Origin: Escherichia coli
GTDB taxonomy: Bacteria; Pseudomonadota; Gammaproteobacteria; Enterobacterales; Enterobacteriaceae
DNA: 64,000 nucleotides
Assembly: GCF_016026235.1 (NCBI RefSeq)
Contig: NZ_CP065613.1
Reading direction: 5' to 3' (one strand)
Shown here: one piece after another, positions 4,038 through 54,290 of the stretch
How the letters are laid out: each line of letters opens with the position of its first letter
How positions within the stretch are numbered: the first letter of the stretch is position 1
The notes under the pieces: model-generated
What the model saw: only the letters and a program-made list of their open reading frames with translations
Databases searched by the model: none
What the model was told of the DNA's origin: nothing
Position numbers and translations under genes: made by a program

Positions 4038-4132
4038 GGAAGATCGTCGTCTCCGGTGAGGCGGCTGGACTTCAAATCCAGTTGGGGCCGCCAGCGGTCC
4101 CGGGCAGGTTCGACTCCTGTGATCTTCCGCCA
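4038..4132 (+). tRNA. selC: tRNA-Sec (selenocysteine tRNA)
   Basis: 95-nt sequence GGAAGATCG...TTCGACTCCTGTGATCTTCCGCCA with a long variable arm and encoded CCA; recognised as E. coli selC. Confidence 0.95.
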
Positions 4133-9783: not shown

Positions 9784-10143
9784 ATGCGCGTGTTTAAAAC
9801 CAAATGGTTTGCAAGGGAAGCCAGGTCTCATGCAATAACAGATGAAGAGTTGTGCCGGGCCATTTTAGAAACGGAGCAAGGTAAAGCTGATGCACTTGGT
9901 GGTGGCGTTTTTAAAAAGCGCCTTCACCAAAATCGTGAGCGTGCAATTATTCTGGCAAAAGGGGGAAGCAATTGGTTTTACACGTTTTTATATGCAAAAC
10001 AGGATATGTCGAACATCAATAGTCAGGAACTGGCTGGGTTTCGTGAACTTGCAAAGCATTATGCCTTCCTGACGAAAGCCCAGCTAACAGCAATGATTAA
10101 CACTAAAGAACTGACAGAGATCTGCTATGACTGCAAAAACTAA
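9784..10143 (+). CDS. putative type II toxin, RelE/ParE superfamily (HigB-2-like)
   Basis: 119-aa basic protein; overlaps the downstream HTH gene by 17 nt (ATGACTGCAAAAACTAA). Family assignment is from architecture and recalled resemblance, not a search. Confidence 0.55.
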   Translation: MRVFKTKWFAREARSHAITDEELCRAILETEQGKADALGGGVFKKRLHQNRERAIILAKGGSNWFYTFLYAKQDMSNINSQELAGFRELAKHYAFLTKAQLTAMINTKELTEICYDCKN

Positions 10144-10450
10144 ATTTAAAAGTCCTGCATTTGAGGCTATTCACAGCGCAGCGGCTGGATTGTCCAGCGT
10201 CGATGCTATTTCTGCCGAAACAATGCGTACTTTTGACAAAGCCTGCCTGACCAGCGTGCAAGACTTACAACCTGTTGAGATAAAAGCACTGCGGGAAAAA
10301 TTAAAAGTGAGTCAGCCCGTCTTCGCTCACTATCTCAATACCAGCGTTTCAACTGTACAAAAATGGGAAAGTGGCGCTAAACGCCCCAATGGCATTTCAT
10401 TAAAACTGCTCAGCATTGTGCAAAAACACGGGCTGGATGTGCTGCTGTAA
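10127..10450 (+). CDS. putative antitoxin, helix-turn-helix (Xre-like) DNA-binding protein
   Basis: 107 aa with a C-terminal HTH-like segment (...SQPVFAHYLNTSVSTVQKWESGAKRP...); translationally coupled to the upstream toxin-like gene. Confidence 0.55.
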   Translation: MTAKTKFKSPAFEAIHSAAAGLSSVDAISAETMRTFDKACLTSVQDLQPVEIKALREKLKVSQPVFAHYLNTSVSTVQKWESGAKRPNGISLKLLSIVQKHGLDVLL

Positions 10451-10491
10451 ATAGAACGTAGATAATGCGTCACCTACTGTCAGTTCCGATA

Positions 10492-10562
10492 CCGGATGCG
10501 GCGTGAACGTCTTATCCACCCACCAGCTCAGGCGCGGTCTGTAGGCTGATAAGACGAAGCGG
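10492..10562. repeat. pair of REP-like palindromic units (BIME-like)
   Basis: CCGGATGCGGCGTGAACGTCTTATCC and GTAGGCTGATAAGACGAAGCGG in opposite orientation; resemble E. coli REP consensus. Confidence 0.5.
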
Positions 10563-10564
10563 TT

Positions 10565-11017
10565 TTAATGCAGCCAGTGAACGCCCTCGGCAGGCTGAAA
10601 GAATGCGTTATAGCGCATCTGAAAAGCATTAATATCCTGCATTTCAGGTTCAGTTTCGCGCAGAAAACCCAGCGCCAGCCTGACCTGAGCATCGGTAATC
10701 GGCGCGGCAAGGCGGGCTTTTTGTAAAATCCGATGCCATTGCAGCAGGTTCTGTTCGCTACCATCGACAATGACAATTTGCCAGATGAGCAACACCTGCG
10801 CGGCGTTTTGCAGGTGCGACTCATCCGGACGATGCAAATAACGTAAAAATTCGTCACCAGCTGACTTTCCCATTTGATCGACCATCGACTCCACGGGTAC
10901 GACATCGATATTCAGCCGATCGCTGAGACGGCGAATCGCTTTTCTGGCCCCGGATGTCAGCACCCGAAAACCAACCACAAACACTACCGCCAGCGTGGCG
11001 AGCATTATCCAGATCAT
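10565..11017 (-). CDS. yicN: DUF1198-type membrane protein
   Basis: Track ORF is 185 aa; trimmed to MIWIMLATLAVVFVV... (150 aa). Start choice is uncertain. Confidence 0.7.
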   Translation of the reverse strand: MIWIMLATLAVVFVVGFRVLTSGARKAIRRLSDRLNIDVVPVESMVDQMGKSAGDEFLRYLHRPDESHLQNAAQVLLIWQIVIVDGSEQNLLQWHRILQKARLAAPITDAQVRLALGFLRETEPEMQDINAFQMRYNAFFQPAEGVHWLH

Positions 11018-11069
11018 GAGTTCTCCTGCGTAATCAAAACTCATGATATCTGGAAACCCTCGCCAGTTA

Positions 11070-12298
11070 CTAATCCACCAGAATAATCTTGAGTGCAAAC
11101 AGAGCTGCGACCACCACCACACACAGGTTCAGATCGCGCCAGCGCCCGGTGCACACTTTCATGATGCAGTACGACATAAAGCCGAGTGCAATCCCTTCGG
11201 TGATCGAGAAAGTAAAGGGCATCATCACCGTGGTAATAAACGCAGGCACCGATTCGGTAAAATCATCCCAGTTAACGCGCGCCAGGCTCGAAGTCATCAG
11301 CACGCCAACAAAGATTAACGCTCCAGCGGTTGCGTAAGGAGGAACCATCGCCACCAGCGGTGAGAAGAACATAACCAACAGGAACATAACGCCAACCACA
11401 ACCGCAGTCAGCCCCGTGCGGCCACCCACTGCCACGCCAGAAGTACTTTCAATATAGGCGGTAACAGACGAGGTGCCGATAAACGCACCCGCCACCGAAC
11501 TCACGCTATCAACATACAGCGCCTTATTCATATTGGGGAATTTACCGTTACTATCTATTAAGCCAGCTTTATCAGTCACACCAATTAATGTTCCTGATGA
11601 ATCAAATAGGTTGATCAGCATAAAGGAGAAAATGATACCGGCGAGTTCAAGTGTTAACGCGCCGCTCAAATCCACTTCACCAATGACGCCGCTAATATCA
11701 GGCGGAATGGAATAGACACCGCTAAAATGAACATCACCGAAAAATAATCCACAGCAAGACGTCACCACAATAGAAACCAGCACCGCGGCATGAAAATGAC
11801 GTGATGACAACACGGTTATAATAAAAAACCCTAAAATACCTAACAACACGCCGTGAGAACTTAAATCGCCAATCATCACCAGAGTGTCTTTATTGGCGAC
11901 AATAACGCCAGTATTTTTTAATCCCATTAAGGCGATAAATAATCCAATTCCGCTGGTGATACCAATACGTAAACTTAATGGAATGTTGGAGATCATCCAG
12001 TACCGGATACGAAACAGCGTGAGCAAAAATAGTCCAATTGCACCCCAGAATATTGCGCCCATCCCGGTCTGCCATGAGATCCCCATCGCCCCCACGACCA
12101 CGAAGGCAAAGAAGGCGTTCAGCCCCATTGCCGGAGCCAGCGCCACAGGTAAGTTAGCAAATATCCCCATCGCAATGCTGCCGATACCGGCAATCAAACA
12201 GGTGGTAACAAACACCACTTTCGGGTCCATTTGTGCCGCGCCGAGAATTTGCGGGTTCACAAAAACGATGTACACCATGGTTAAAAAAGTGGTCATCC
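11070..12298 (-). pseudogene. adeQ: adenine permease AdeQ, 3' portion (codons ~37-444), separated from its 5' end by an IS insertion
   Basis: 408-aa ORF beginning MTTFLTMVYIVFVNPQ...; the N-terminus (MNNDNTDYV...ELIAGMTT) lies on the far side of the IS. Confidence 0.8.
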
Positions 12299-13593
12299 CC
12301 TGAGGGATCCCCAGAAAATTTAGTAAACCATTATCATATTGGTATACCGTTGCTGTAGAACTTTCAGCCCTGCGTCAAGTGACAGTGTGTTTAGTATGAG
12401 TGGAGAATGTCGAATCACATTCTCCGCCAGTTTTAATAACGAGATGACTCGCCTGTGCTTCACTGTATTTGCCTGATATTTATGATGTATCCCTTTGTTT
12501 TCCAGGCTGAAACCGCTTAACCACATAATGATACTGGCTAATGTTGCGATCAGACTCAATACCGTGACCCGCCCGGATGAATGACTGGCACCAAACCGTA
12601 GTCCAAATCCCCAGCGAGGATTTTTTCATCCCTGAAATTTTGCTCAATTTGCATTCTACGGCTGTATAATTTCATTACCTGTTTTGGCGAGAACTCAGTA
12701 CTGTTTGTGAAAATAAACCATGGTGATTTCCCGGCAGTACGAGCTTTAGCCGTCACCGATGGTCTGGTTGCTCTTTCCTTCGAGCGTTTAAATCTACGAC
12801 CTTTAGACTTACTTTTATAAAGATAAAAATGCCCTTCATGTTGTGCATTTTTATCTCGACCCAGCAGGCCTTCATCTAAATAAATTGCTGTCGTTGATGC
12901 TTTTGTGCCTGAGTCCGACACCTTTTCCCAGCCATTACCAACATTGTAATAATGATTGCCCAGTACCCGGCAAATATAGGTCCAGCCACGGGAGCGGAGC
13001 TGTTGGAACCATCGCCCCTGAAAACCGGCATCTGTAATAACAATGACATCAGTCCCGGGGGAAAAGCACTCAGCAAGCGATTCCAGAAAACGCTCATGTA
13101 CATCTGCATTCGCTGTCTGTGATGATGGAACGACACAACTCATCAACGGTAAAGAACGCCCGTCACATGCCAGGCTTGCCCGCAAAAGCTGAAAACGAGA
13201 GGCATGATAAGCACTCCAGTCAATGAGTATCACAACACGAGACATTCCCCGCGTAATCTTTTGGGTAATTCGCTGAAAAATGGTGGAAACCTCATTTTGC
13301 AAATGTCGATTCCCCAACAGTCGATCCACCCGCTTTATTTTGTTTTTAACTGATGCCGTACCGGTTAAATGACGCCCGATACTGGTAAGTGTGAGGGAAG
13401 CGCCATTTATTACAGCATTAGTTGCGTCAATCAGTGATTTTTGACGGTAAAGATGCAAAGGGGCCAGTATGTTGTTAAGGAAATTTTGGCATAATGAACG
13501 TGCAGGCATAGTGGTGATCTCCTTGAAATTGTTAGCACAATCAATTAGATCACATCTCACTATGCCTGTCTTGTTTTCTGGGGATTCCTCAGT
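12299..13593 (-). mobile_element. IS4-family, IS10-like insertion sequence (~1.29 kb) inserted in adeQ
   Basis: Terminal inverted repeats CTGAGGGATCCCC (left) and GGGGATTCCTCAG (right) resemble IS10 ends; flanked by direct repeat TGGTCATCC at 12290-12298 and 13593-13601. Boundary is ambiguous by 1 nt. Confidence 0.8.
12320..13509 (-). pseudogene. IS10-like DDE transposase, frameshifted
   Basis: Translation from MPARSL... shares blocks with IS10 transposase (NKIKRVDRLLGNRHL, DAGF, YLYKSKSKGRRF, YSRRMQIEQNFRD). Reading frame changes near 12619-12626 at an A6 run; the C-terminal ~80 codons continue in the adjacent frame. Confidence 0.75.
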
Positions 13594-13707
13594 GGTCATC
13601 CCCGCAATCAATTCTGTGCGGACGGTGGTCCCATGCTGAGGTAGTTTAAATAATCGCGAAAGCGTCCCTGATTCATTACTCACGTAATCGGTATTGTCAT
13701 TATTCAT
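13593..13707 (-). pseudogene. adeQ: adeQ 5' fragment (first ~39 codons) plus native promoter side
   Basis: MNNDNTDYVSNESGTLSRLFKLPQHGTTVRTELIAGMTT runs directly into the IS end; the duplicated target repeats the GMTT coding bases. Confidence 0.75.
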
Positions 13708-13881
13708 TTTTTTGTCCATTGGAGGAGATTTAATCCCTTGCTTTTGTAAAACAAATGACAACAACGGTTCAGTGATAATTATCACATTTCAATTGCACAT
13801 TAATGGATATTCTTTAATAATCTCGCGACGTTTCTTTATGATAAATAATAATCAAATTGATAAAATCAAAATGAGAAAAAT

Positions 13882-15648
13882 ATGAATAATTCTATTAACC
13901 ATAAATTTCATCACATTAGCCGGGCTGAATACCAGGAATTGTTAGCCGTTTCCCGTGGCGACGCTGTTGCCGATTATATTATTGATAATGTCTCTATTCT
14001 CGACCTGATCAATGGCGGAGAAATTTCCGGCCCAATTGTGATTAAAGGACGTTACATTGCCGGTGTTGGCGCAGAATACACTGATGCTCCGGCTTTGCAG
14101 CGGATTGATGCCCGCGGCGCAACGGCGGTGCCAGGGTTTATTGATGCTCACCTGCATATTGAATCCAGCATGATGACGCCGGTCACCTTTGAAACCGCTA
14201 CCCTGCCGCGTGGCCTGACGACCGTTATTTGCGACCCTCATGAAATCGTCAACGTGATGGGCGAAGCCGGATTCGCCTGGTTTGCCCGCTGTGCCGAACA
14301 GGCAAGGCAAAACCAGTACTTACAGGTCAGCTCTTGCGTACCCGCCCTGGAAGGCTGCGATGTTAACGGTGCCAGTTTTACCCTTGAACAGATGCTCGCC
14401 TGGCGGGACCATCCGCAGGTTACCGGCCTTGCAGAAATGATGGACTACCCTGGCGTAATTAGCGGGCAGAATGCGCTGCTCGATAAACTGGATGCATTTC
14501 GCTACCTGACGCTGGACGGTCACTGTCCGGGTTTGGGTGGCAAAGAACTTAACGCCTATATTGCTGCGGGTATTGAAAACTGCCACGAAAGTTATCAGCT
14601 GGAAGAAGGACGGCGGAAATTACAACTCGGCATGTCGTTGATGATCCGCGAAGGGTCCGCTGCCCGCAATCTCAACGCACTGGCACCGTTGATCAACGAA
14701 TTTAACAGCCCGCAATGCATGCTCTGTACCGATGACCGTAACCCGTGGGAAATCGCTCATGAAGGGCATATCGATGCCTTAATTCGCCGCCTGATCGAAC
14801 AACACAATGTGCCGCTGCATGTGGCATATCGCGTCGCCAGCTGGTCGACGGCGCGCCACTTTGGTCTGAATCACCTGGGCTTACTGGCACCCGGTAAGCA
14901 GGCTGATATCGTCCTGTTGAGCGATGCGCGTAAGGTCACGGTGCAGCAGGTACTGGTGAAAGGCGAACCGATTGACGCACAAACCTTACAGGCGGAAGAG
15001 TCGGCGAGACTGGCGCAGTCTGCCCCGCCATTTGGCAATACCATTGCCCGCCAGCCAGTTTCCGCCAGCGACTTTGCCCTGCAATTCATGCCCGGAAAAC
15101 GCTATCGGGTCATTGACGTCATCCATAACGAATTGATTACGCACTCCCGCTCCAGCGTCTATAGCGAAAATGGTTTTGATCGCGATGATGTGTGCTTTAT
15201 TGCCGTACTTGAGCGTTACGGGCAACGGCTGGCTCCGGCCTGTGGTTTGCTCGGCGGCTTTGGCCTGAATGAAGGTGCGCTGGCTGCGACGGTCAGCCAT
15301 GACAGCCATAATATTGTGGTGATCGGTCGCAGTGCGGAAGAGATGGCGCTGGCGGTCAATCAGGTGATTCAGGATGGCGGCGGGCTGTGCGTGGTACGTA
15401 ACGGCCAGGTACAAAGTCATCTACCGTTGCCCATTGCCGGGCTGATGAGCACCGACACGGCGCAGTCGCTGGCCGAGCAAATTGACGCCTTGAAAGCCGC
15501 CGCCCGTGAATGCGGTCCGTTACCCGATGAGCCGTTTATTCAGATGGCGTTTCTTTCTCTGCCAGTGATCCCCGAGCTAAAACTAACCAGTCAGGGGCTA
15601 TTTGATGGCGAGAAGTTTGCCTTCACCACGCTAGAAGTCACGGAATAA
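13882..15648 (+). CDS. adeD: adenine deaminase
   Basis: 588 aa; recognised as E. coli Ade. Confidence 0.9.
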
Positions 15649-23029: not shown

Positions 23030-23170
23030 ACAAAAAACCCCGCCGGAGCGAGGTTTCGTCAGCCGCCTGCGGCTGGTAACCGCAAAGCACACTGTATTAT
23101 GTCAACACTGAAAGTATACCTGTTCCGCGCAGAACGCGCAATTTCGGCACGAATTTTGACGTATTTAGTA
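23030..23170 (-). ncRNA. istR: IstR antitoxin sRNA region (IstR-1/IstR-2); 5' ends approximate
   Basis: Minus-strand hairpin plus U6 terminator near 23032-23053; contains a ~21-nt block (23087-23110) repeated upstream of tisB; sits divergent from a LexA-boxed promoter. Confidence 0.5.
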
Positions 23171-37569: not shown

Positions 37570-37983
37570 TTAGTTGATTTCGATACGGCGCGGTTTTTTC
37601 GCTTCCGGAATCACGCGTTCGAGATCGATATACAGCAAACCATTTACCAGGTTAGCGCCACGAACATGAATGTTCTCAGCTAACTGGAATTTGCGTTCAA
37701 AGTTGCGTTCAGCGATGCCCTGGTACAGATAGGTGCGCTCTTTTTGTTCGTCGGCGTGAGCACCTTTCACCACCAGAAGATTATCCTGGGCGGTAATTTC
37801 CAGTTCGCTCTCAGCAAAACCAGCCACAGCGATAGCAATGCGGTAATGGTTTTCGTCTACCAGTTCAACGTTATACGGAGGATAGCCGCCATTACTCTGG
37901 CTCTGGTTGTTTTCTAAGTGGTTAAACAAACGGTCAAATCCAATAGCAGAACGGTAAAGCGGGGATAAATCAAAGTTACGCAT
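37570..37983 (-). CDS. ibpA: small heat-shock protein IbpA
   Basis: 137 aa from [20 protein letters not shown]... Confidence 0.9.
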
Positions 37984-38078
37984 AATCAATAGCTCCTGAA
38001 ATCAGCGAGAATGTAAGACCTTCCACAATGGACAGGTCAGGTAGCCAGAACACCCATCAGGCGCGTCCTCATCGGCTA
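37984..38078 (-). promoter_or_regulatory. ibpA 5' UTR (~100 nt), reported site of a ROSE-like RNA thermometer
   Basis: Long leader between the sigma-32 promoter and the start codon with the SD inside a predicted stem; the fold was not computed. Confidence 0.45.
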
Positions 38079-48146: not shown

Positions 48147-48244
48147 GCCGGATGCGGCGTGAACGCCTTATCCGGCCTACAAAAACATGCAAATTCAATA
48201 TATTGCAGGAGTCTCGTAGGCCTGATAAGCGTAGCGCAACAGGC
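48147..48244. repeat. two REP elements in inverted orientation (BIME)
   Basis: GCCGGATGCGGCGTGAACGCCTTATCCGGCCTAC and GTAGGCCTGATAAGCGTAGCGCAACAGGC. Confidence 0.65.
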
Positions 48245-52886: not shown

Positions 52887-54290
52887 TTACGATGACAATG
52901 TTCTGATTAAATTTGAAAAATCTTCTTTGATATCGTGGCTCTCTTCACGCAACTGCTCGATCTTACGGCAGGCATGAAGCACCGTCGTGTGGTCACGACC
53001 ACCAAACGCATCGCCAATCTCCGGCAGACTGTGGTTAGTCAGCTCTTTCGCCAGCGCCATCGCCATCTGGCGCGGACGCGCCACCGAGCGGGATCGACGC
53101 TTGGAAAGGAGATCCGCGACTTTGATCTTGTAGTACTCCGCCACCGTCTTCTGAATATTGTCGATGGTGACCAGTTTTTCCTGCAATGCCAGCAAGTCGC
53201 GCAGCGCCTCACGCACGAAGTCGATGGTGATCGCCCGTCCGGTAAAGTTGGCATTGGCAATGACGCGGTTCAGCGCCCCTTCCAGCTCACGTACGTTAGA
53301 TCGTAGACGCTTGGCGATAAAGAACGCCACTTCGCCCGGCAAACGAATGTCGTTTTCGTCGGCCTTTTTCATCAGGATCGCCACACGGGTTTCCAGCTCT
53401 GGCGGTTCGATCGCCACAGTCAGTCCCCAACCGAAGCGGGATTTCAAACGATCCTCAACGCCGTTGATCTCTTTCGGATAGCGATCCGAGGTGAGAATGA
53501 TCTGTTGATTACCTTCCAGCAGGGCGTTGAAGGTATGGAAAAACTCTTCCTGAGATCGTTCTTTATTAGCAAAAAACTGAATATCGTCGATCAGCAGTGC
53601 ATCTACGGAACGGTAGTAGCGTTTAAACTCTTCGATCGCGTTGTTTTGCAGGGCTTTAACCATGTCCTGAACAAAGCGCTCGGAGTGCATATAAACCACT
53701 TTGGCATTCGGCTTGCGCGCCATAATGCCGTTACCCACCGCATGCAGCAGGTGAGTTTTACCCAGACCCGTGCCGCCATAAAGGAACAACGGGTTATAGG
53801 CACCGCCAGGGTTATCCGCCACCTGGCGAGCCGCCGCGCGCGCCAGTTGGTTAGATTTACCTTCAACGAAGTTATCAAACGTGTGTTTGACGTTTACGTT
53901 AGAACGATAGGTCGGTTCTGCCGGGGCCGGGACGTTATCCCAACCTGAGCGCGTAGAAGGCGCAGCACGTTGCGGCTGCGTTTGCGCCACCTGTGCAGGG
54001 GCCGCGACGTTGCTCGTCACTGCCGCTTGTGGCGTTTGCGTCACCGGTTTGGTGCCGACTTCAAAACGCAGCTGTGGGGCATCCGCTCCGCAGAAACTGG
54101 TTAGCAGTCCATTGATATTATTAAGGTACTTGTCCCGTACCCAATCGAGGACAAAACGGTTTGGCGCGTACAGGGCCAGCGTGTTATCGCTCAGTTCCGC
54201 CTGCAATGGGCGTATCCACATACTGAATTCTGTGGCTGGTAACTCATCCTGCAATCGGGCAAGACACTGCTGCCAAAGCGAAAGTGACAC
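52887..54290 (-). CDS. dnaA: chromosomal replication initiator DnaA
   Basis: 467 aa from a GTG start ([13 protein letters not shown]...); AAA+ Walker [11 protein letters not shown]. Confidence 0.95.

Follow-up and report, generated by a model that had tools for sequence, protein, structure and literature searches.

The DNA analysed here, referred to as the window, was a 64,000-nucleotide (64-kb) stretch of an E. coli/Shigella-type chromosome. Within it, the adenine permease gene adeQ was broken at codons 36-39 by a 1293-bp element. The first-pass annotation had described a reading frame split by about 1.29 kb of foreign sequence, and this arrangement was confirmed, with both parts of the gene on the minus strand. 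The 5' fragment (13593..13707) comprised codons 1-39 (MNNDNTDYV...ELIAGMTT), with its ATG at 13707. The 3' fragment (11070..12299) held codons 36-444 and the stop codon, severed from the adeQ promoter and start codon; an ORF of 408 codons beginning MTTFLTMVY... (11070-12296) lay within it, and PF00860 (Xan_ur_permease) was recorded for this fragment. The 5' frame ran without a stop across the end of the element into the transposase frame, and in assembly GCA_900449985.1 a 462-aa adeQ/transposase fusion ORF was annotated as a gene. Divergent from adeQ, on the plus strand, was the adenine deaminase gene ade, or adeD (13882..15648), whose ATG was 289 bp from the end of the element.

When 1303 bp, the element plus one copy of its flanking repeat, were excised in silico, an adeQ ORF of 444 codons was restored, as the first-pass annotation had expected. 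Across 2001 bp, the restored sequence matched the unbroken locus of E. coli FDAARGOS_943 with 100% identity, and the healed 444-aa protein was identical to WP_001362489.1, named 'adenine permease AdeQ'. The healed ORF took up a conserved place beside ade, in the order yicN-adeQ-adeD-uhpT (FDAARGOS_943 RefSeq annotation). AdeQ (YicO) is an adenine permease of the NCS2/AzgA-like type; comparison with NCBIfam gave no model matching it.

The element occupied positions 12300..13592, with its transposase on the minus strand. Terminal inverted repeats had been proposed for it, and these proved to be longer than first given: 19 bp with one mismatch. The transposase-distal, 'inside-type' repeat (12300..12318, plus strand, CTGAGGGATCCCCAGAAAA) contained a GATC (Dam) site at 12306-12309, and the proximal, 'outside-type' repeat (13574..13592, minus strand, reading 13592-13574, CTGAGGAATCCCCAGAAAA) contained none. 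Such matches were expected about 0.01 times per shuffled window, and none of 100 shuffles gave two. The 64-kb window contained exactly two copies of a 9-mer, TGGTCATCC, at 12290 and at 13593, on both flanks of the element as the first-pass annotation had noted; the full direct repeat was 10 bp, TGGTCATCCC, and two given 10-mers would match by chance with a probability of about 1e-6. The transposase-distal copy of this target-site duplication (12290..12299) supplied codons 36-39 of the adeQ 3' fragment, the proximal copy lay at 13593..13602, and the same decamer was present once at the empty site of FDAARGOS_943.

A single ORF, short terminal inverted repeats and a direct target duplication conform to the layout of the IS4 family. 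The family match on which the first-pass annotation had staked its reading was found: over its full length the element was 99.8% identical, over 1292/1293 bp, to many copies annotated in RefSeq as 'IS4-like element ISEc60 family transposase', from which the name ISEc60 is taken. The inverted repeats were identical to the ends of reference ISEc60 copies (1294 bp). ISEc60 in E. coli CFSAN029787 (WP_001111632.1) shares the same 19-bp inverted repeats, the gene layout and a 10-bp duplication. All independent ISEc60 insertions examined (8/8) had a 10-bp duplication, as did one variant of 85% identity, and the target consensus was the palindrome G|GGGAWWWYCC|C. The element is a copy of the catalogued IS4-family element ISEc60 and not IS10. 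In a literature search on 'ISEc60', the name was present in two survey papers only.

IS10 is the insertion sequence of Tn10 and is also annotated as ISVsa5; its target consensus is NGCTNAGCN. The element had been called IS10-like, and this description held in that it belongs to the IS4 family and is of IS10 type. The relationship is a distant one: the transposase was 36% identical to that of IS10A (E = 5e-76; alignable over 93% of the length; about 400 aa) and 52% identical to that of ISSfl1, an IS4-family element of Shigella flexneri and the closest separately named relative found. The stronger reading, that this is IS10 itself or a close isoform with the usual 9-bp duplication, draws on the ends, which begin CTGAGGAATCCCC / CTGAGGGATCCCC and are much like the IS10A ends CTGAAGAATCCCC / CTGAAGGATCCCC (IS10/IS10A and ISEc60 ends both start CTGA.GAATCCCC), on a similar length and single-ORF layout, and on the 9-mer that does repeat on both flanks. 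We consider this reading refuted, with essentially no probability left to it, by the low transposase identity, by a repeat of 10 bp at this locus and in every one of the nine other ISEc60-type insertions that were informative, and by an Rfam RNA-OUT score of 16.8 bits compared with 85.9 bits on IS10A. The 9-bp duplication that had been presented as typical of IS10 is therefore a 10-bp duplication regular for ISEc60, and neither protein identity, duplication length nor the RF00240 result placed the element in IS10 sensu stricto. ISEc60 further differs from IS10 in length (1294 bp versus 1328-1329 bp) and in a target consensus unlike that of IS10. ISSfl1 has ends nearly identical to those of ISEc60 (CTGAGGAATCCCCAGAAAA), but it is 1301 bp long and had a 9-bp duplication in the one copy examined.

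The transposase ORF as sequenced (12556..13509, minus strand) encoded 317 aa, of which residues 1-296 were authentic and the last 21, before the stop, were out of frame. The authentic part contained D97, D160 and E289 and the motif Y282/R285/E289/K296. D97/D160/E289 stood opposite D97/D161/E292 of IS10, and the YREK motif opposite Y285/R288/E292/K299. The enzyme is a DDE_Tnp_1-type transposase with the Y-(2)-R-(3)-E-(6)-K motif of the IS4 family. Alignment to two CFSAN029787 ISEc60 copies revealed a 1-bp deletion in a run of A residues: the window had A6 (T6 on the plus strand, 12621..12626), and every other copy examined had A7. Addition of one A to the run gave a transposase of 396 aa, and the out-of-frame remainder (12320..12620, minus strand; codons 297-396 plus stop) aligned with the C-terminal region of IS10A. 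The repaired protein scored 357 bits against NCBIfam NF033591 (transpos_IS4_2; cut-off 152), and PF01609 was recorded for the intact transposase. A PDB sequence search with phmmer gave no meaningful match, because the Tn5 transposase is too distant for this method. Exact-sequence look-up of the 317-aa and repaired 396-aa proteins returned no record; relative to the commonest ISEc60 sequence, this copy had two substitutions (G to D and P to S) in addition to the 1-bp indel.

The transposase gene is a pseudogene as sequenced. Unlike the intact reference ISEc60 transposase, its product is truncated after K296; the A is lost just after the catalytic YREK lysine, and the protein therefore lacks the C-terminal 100 residues. 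With a 317-aa product in place of the intact 396-aa transposase of an autonomous copy, this IS copy is probably non-autonomous; it could be moved by the transposase of other ISEc60 copies, since both of its ends are intact. Programmed frameshifting at the A-run was considered and rejected: all other copies have A7 with one continuous ORF, and the A6 run is out of phase for a canonical X_XXY_YYZ slippery site. Because the same insertion in GCA_900449985.1 has A7, the frameshift either arose very recently or reflects a sequencing error in the homopolymer, and if A6 is an error the ISEc60 copy would be intact.

The end of the element nearest the transposase start carried features reminiscent of IS10 control. 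A putative RNA-OUT-like antisense hairpin (13502..13569, plus strand) overlapped the transposase start codon and ribosome-binding site and was predicted to be stable (MFE -31.6 kcal/mol, z = -7.2). Similar to RNA-OUT of IS10, it is a stable antisense structure with its 5' end 7 nt beyond the ATG. The hairpin is also present in ISSfl1, where compensatory changes have preserved it: two pairs had such changes, and two more pairs turn to G-U on the plus strand in ISSfl1. The Rfam RNA-OUT match on the element was below threshold (16.8 bits; gathering score 41; 85.9 bits for the real IS10A control), and its register relative to the ATG was the same as that of the genuine IS10A match. RNA-OUT was undetected at E <= 10 in ISSfl1, a Salmonella relative and the 85% ISEc60 variant; membership in RF00240 was therefore rejected, and we claim a structural analogy alone.

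Two extended -10-like motifs were read by eye from the sequence. The candidate pOUT-type promoter (13487..13495, plus strand, TGGCATAAT) lay 7 nt upstream of the antisense hairpin, and the candidate Dam-sensitive pIN-type promoter (13544..13552, minus strand, TGATCTAAT) overlapped a GATC. A consensus promoter scan flagged neither the pIN- nor the pOUT-like motif; the pOUT-type motif was missed because it has no -35 element. Of the two inverted repeats, only the distal one had a GATC, at 12306; another, at 13548, lay within the -10-like motif. IS10A and ISSfl1 share with ISEc60 the restriction of GATC to the transposase-distal end, and IS10 and ISEc60 are alike in having a GATC that overlaps a -10-like motif upstream of the transposase gene. 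ISEc60 seems to have retained antisense and Dam control in the manner of IS10, although the two proteins are only 36% identical.

The insertion was common to at least two public assemblies, GCA_900449985.1 and GCA_001907545.1. Searching the literature for the assembly accessions returned no paper. GCA_900449985.1 was identical to the window over 9.2 kb, the sole difference being A7 versus A6, and a contig of GCA_001907545.1 began inside the IS and continued at 100% identity into adeQ. The closest relatives were GCA_900449985.1, with the same insertion, and FDAARGOS_943, the closest complete genome, with an empty site at adeQ. The adeQ::IS junction was found in 0/5426 complete E. coli genomes. 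The first-pass annotation had called the event recent, and the empty site in the closest complete genome agrees with this; the two substitutions and the indel, and the sharing of the insertion by at least two assemblies, indicate that it is recent only in a relative sense.

The closest complete genome bears more than 35 ISEc60 copies, and the element occupies up to 39 places per related genome. Such multiplicity raises the question of an assembly artefact, in which a repeat copy has been misplaced into an intact adeQ: repeats commonly cause misassembly, and the homopolymer difference hints at long-read error. We judge an artefact very improbable, given that the 10-bp duplication is perfect and has the length and consensus typical of ISEc60, that the same junctions are found in GCA_900449985.1, on an independent contig of 4.56 Mb, and that the contig of another independent assembly (GCA_001907545.1) spans from inside the IS into adeQ. 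The event is a real and ordinary mutation of an already-known kind.

The explanation that we favor, and hold with high confidence as a whole, is transposition of ISEc60 into adeQ with a 10-bp duplication, yielding a presumed null adeQ allele and an IS copy that is probably non-autonomous. ISEc60 transposed into the chromosomal gene between codons 36 and 39, presumably by non-replicative cut-and-paste, by homology with IS10. The last 405 codons of adeQ are now cut off from its promoter, its start codon and its first 39 codons, and because of this separation the interrupted gene should, judging from its sequence, be a null allele. A truncated permease might still be expressed at a residual level from the 3' fragment, because an ATG (M37) begins this fragment; gene callers sometimes choose M37 even in intact adeQ loci. 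AdeP/PurP, an adenine permease paralogous to AdeQ, would presumably make up for the loss of AdeQ function.

On a rival reading, the insertion would matter mainly as a gain of function in the neighbouring gene. It may derepress an H-NS-silenced ade, either by breaking the adeQ-ade control region and so separating it from DNA on the adeQ side, or by outward transcription of the pOUT type. The adeQ-ade intergenic region is AT-rich (27% G+C compared with a window mean of 51%), and the IS end that faces ade is the transposase-proximal one, which carries the outward-facing antisense promoter candidate. PMC13274399, citing Petersen et al., reports on IS activation of ade and describes IS insertions upstream of adeD as enriched in evolved cultures, and PMC2753651 ascribes ade activation to relief of H-NS repression. 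The IS-activated cryptic ade of Petersen, Moller and Valentin-Hansen (2002, J Biol Chem 277:31373), as cited in these two papers, likewise had the IS on the adeQ (yicO) side of the divergent control region; those were laboratory-selected Ade+ mutants with other IS elements, whereas this is a natural ISEc60 insertion 289 bp from the ade ATG. Against activation, a T-rich tract after the antisense hairpin (TCTTGTTTTCT) is terminator-like and would limit read-out, and the strong target preference of ISEc60 alone explains the landing site. The activating insertions of Petersen et al. reportedly lay no more than about 145 bp from the start of ade transcription, and the present insertion is farther away. 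We regard activation of ade as unlikely. If it were true, this locus would be a natural case, from an EIEC/Shigella-like lineage whose IS elements are expanding, of the activation of cryptic ade by an IS that had been selected in the laboratory, and purine salvage would be rewired to adenine-to-hypoxanthine conversion with one adenine importer lost.

The significance of the finding is chiefly one of annotation: adeQ here should be labelled a pseudogene interrupted by ISEc60, and the transposase should be labelled frameshifted. For curators of insertion sequences, ISEc60 makes 10-bp duplications at a palindromic target, unlike IS10, and IS10-style antisense/Dam control has apparently been kept at only 36% protein identity. 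The interruption of adeQ adds to the signs of gene decay driven by insertion sequences in a lineage with expanded ISEc60.

Inspection of 10900-14000 and its open reading frames revealed the split adeQ gene described in the first-pass annotation. The 5' reading frame begins at an ATG at 13707 on the minus strand (MNNDNTDYV...ELIAGMTT) and continues into foreign sequence, the rest of the permease occupies an ORF of 408 codons at 11070-12296 (beginning MTTFLTMVY), and a 1293-bp element lies between them at 12300-13592. The inverted repeats at its ends are 19 bp long and differ at one position (CTGAGGGATCCCCAGAAAA / CTGAGGAATCCCCAGAAAA); they are the only two matches to the repeat in the window (chance expectation ~0.01). 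The 9-bp flanking repeat reported earlier, TGGTCATCC, is real and occurs in the window at 12290 and 13593 only, but is one base short: the full repeat is the decamer TGGTCATCCC, corresponding to adeQ nucleotides 106-115 (codons 36-39). In silico removal of the element with one repeat copy, a period of 1303 bp, restored a 444-codon adeQ ORF, as had been expected.

The empty site was found in E. coli FDAARGOS_943, which is 99.9% identical to the window over the flanking 10.4 kb (other genomes ~98.7-98.9%) and in which yicN and adeD flank an uninterrupted 444-aa gene with the annotation 'adenine permease AdeQ'. With 12300-13602 removed, the window matched this genome at 100% over 2001 bp, with one TGGTCATCCC copy, and the healed AdeQ protein was identical to WP_001362489.1. 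The adeQ::IS junction was absent from all 5426 complete E. coli genomes searched. Exact look-up of the 408-aa fragment located the same insertion on a 4.56-Mb contig of GCA_900449985.1, as well as a GCA_001907545.1 contig that begins inside the IS and continues, 100% identical, into adeQ. Because these independent assemblies carry the insertion, a misassembly private to the window is ruled out. Public assemblies already contain the adeQ::ISEc60 allele.

A megablast search of the complete E. coli genomes identified the element: full-length matches at 99.8% were elements annotated 'IS4-like element ISEc60 family transposase', located on chromosomes and large plasmids at up to 39 places per genome. 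ISEc60 was also seen on Shigella dysenteriae and Escherichia albertii plasmids. Annotated reference copies are 1294 bp long with a transposase gene of 1191 nt (396 aa), for which PF01609 (DDE_Tnp_1) is recorded. The window transposase, repaired by one added A, scored 357 bits against the NCBIfam IS4-family model NF033591 (cut-off 152). The nearest separately named relatives in a tblastn search of plasmids were ISSfl1 (52%) and IS10A/ISVsa5 (36%). Pairwise alignment with IS10A (E = 5e-76) placed D97, D160 and E289 of the ISEc60 transposase opposite D97, D161 and E292, and Y282/R285/E289/K296 opposite Y285/R288/E292/K299, the catalytic residues of IS10. With a transposase 36% identical to that of IS10A and 99.8% full-length identity to annotated ISEc60 copies, the element is ISEc60 and not IS10 itself; the earlier term 'IS10-like' is correct for the IS4-family subgroup only.

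Ten further ISEc60 loci were collected by exact look-up of the reference transposase, and their flanks were extracted. Eight independent insertions, the window's included, showed a perfect 10-bp direct repeat, and the loci lacking it contained copies that were in tandem or rearranged. An 85%-identical ISEc60 variant has a 10-bp repeat too, whereas the single ISSfl1 copy examined has a 9-bp duplication. The agreement of the earlier 9-bp value with IS10 was a coincidence of expectation. The target consensus is palindromic (G/GGGAWWWYCC/C), the base immediately outside the duplication on each side (G and C) is invariant at 9/9 sites, and the window site conforms in transposase orientation (G/GGGATGACCA/C). 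Target preference was marked across the extracted loci (flanks in L001, L009-L018 and L022; window 12286-12303 and 13589-13606). Among the sites are several GC-rich hairpins with the pattern GCGGGG-N-CCCCGC, which look like terminator stems adjoining small toxin genes (ibs, hok), and the consensus is similar to the element's own terminal GGGGATCCC motif.

Two arrangements of paired copies were observed. GCA_031665585.1 (L010 1418-4015 = L011 114-2711) has two complete copies head to tail, with 10 bp (GGGATTTACC) between them and GGGATTTTCC at both outer flanks; it looks like insertion of a second ISEc60 into one copy of the first's target duplication. On the E. coli CFSAN029787 chromosome, two copies 340 bp apart (L001 3001-4294 and 4633-5926) share the 10-bp duplication GGGTTTCCCC, and each adjoins a gene for an Ibs type I toxin. 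This reflects either two separate hits on one sequence present in repeated ibs/sib units or duplication of a unit that already contained the IS.

By homology with IS10, ISEc60 would transpose through its DDE transposase by non-replicative cut-and-paste, the mode established for that family, and it appears to retain several regulatory features of IS10. GATC is present in the transposase-distal end (GGGATCCCC) and missing from the proximal end (GGAATCCCC), an asymmetry of potential Dam sites that is also seen in the ends of IS10A and ISSfl1. Upstream of the transposase ATG (13509) is a candidate promoter at 13544-13552 on the minus strand (TGATCTAAT motif), with GATC within an extended -10-like element. 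On the opposite strand, a candidate antisense promoter motif (TGGCATAAT, 13487-13495) precedes a 68-nt hairpin at 13502-13569 (MFE -31.6 kcal/mol, z = -7.2). This hairpin persists across ISEc60, its 85% variant, ISSfl1 and a Salmonella relative, two of its pairs having changed in a compensatory way. In ISSfl1, G-U replaces G-C at two pairs on the antisense strand, whereas the sense strand would have A-C mismatches there; this favours a functional antisense RNA, although the evidence from four sequences is modest. In read-through transcripts, the inverted repeat that forms this hairpin would also mask the ribosome-binding site, an effect known in IS10 as 'fold-back inhibition'. The Rfam RNA-OUT model matched the hairpin stretch at 16.8 bits (E = 8; gathering score 41) and had no match at E <= 10 in ISSfl1, the Salmonella relative or the 85% variant, so membership of RF00240 was rejected. 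The match nevertheless has its 5' end 7 nt beyond the transposase ATG, the same register as in genuine IS10A (85.9 bits), and we therefore claim only a putative structural and positional analogue of RNA-OUT.

The window copy showed three differences from two reference copies. Two of them change an amino acid each (G to D and P to S); the third shortens an A7 run by one A, so that the window reads T6 at 12621-12626. This run encodes the YREK lysine K296; the shifted frame adds 21 aberrant residues before a stop at 12556-12558, and the C-terminal 100 residues are removed. Over 9227 bp the sole difference from GCA_900449985.1 is this run, A7 in that assembly, so that the frameshift is either a mutation that arose very recently or a sequencing error in the homopolymer. 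A genuine frameshift would probably make the copy non-autonomous, but because both ends are intact it would probably still be mobilisable in trans. The 85%-identical variant on an E. coli G6/7 plasmid (L022 385-1574; 1294 bp, 10-bp duplication) is annotated as frameshifted too, and transposase decay may be frequent in the ISEc60 group.

Divergent from adeQ lies the adenine deaminase gene ade (13882-15648), which passages in two papers describe as cryptic in E. coli and activatable by IS insertions (PMC13274399, citing Petersen et al.), through relief of H-NS repression (PMC2753651). Activation of an H-NS-silenced ade by the ISEc60 insertion would be consistent with an ade ATG 289 bp from the IS end, an intergenic region of 27% G+C, and an outward antisense promoter candidate at the IS end facing ade. 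However, a terminator-like T tract follows the antisense hairpin, the strong target preference explains the landing site without selection, and the activating insertions of the original study reportedly lay closer to the ade promoter; we consider activation improbable.

No second IS was detected within the 64-kb window, the rest of which is ordinary yicI-to-mdtL backbone, including gyrB-recF-dnaN-dnaA. Rfam matches above gathering score were tRNA-Sec (selC, 4038-4128), istR (23032-23161), a ROSE_2 thermoregulator upstream of ibpA (37977-38049), ES036 (48181-48223) and the dnaA antisense RNA AsdA (53700-53780). Between nepI and yicN, at 9790-10520, the window lineage and FDAARGOS_943 carry a toxin of the RelE/ParE family paired with an HTH antitoxin (PF06296, PF01381); the pair is not known at this position in K-12.

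The adeQ 5' fragment retains the promoter and 39 codons, and from its start codon the frame stays open across the IS end into the transposase ORF (13510-13707, minus strand). Translation from this start could yield an AdeQ(1-39)-27 aa-transposase fusion, and a 462-aa AdeQ(1-39)-linker-transposase ORF is called as a gene in GCA_900449985.1 (L002 2589-3977). For the 3' fragment, which starts at M37, no ribosome-binding site is evident at a workable distance, and part of the first hydrophobic segment is missing, suggesting that the fragment is non-functional. The event is of a known kind, a textbook insertion into a non-essential transporter gene by an IS that is already named and belongs to a well-studied family; the first reading is corrected in the name ISEc60, the 10-bp duplication, the frameshifted transposase and the intact adeQ of the closest complete genome. 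Since PurP/AdeP, a paralogue of AdeQ, also serves E. coli as an adenine permease, the phenotype of adeQ interruption is likely mild.
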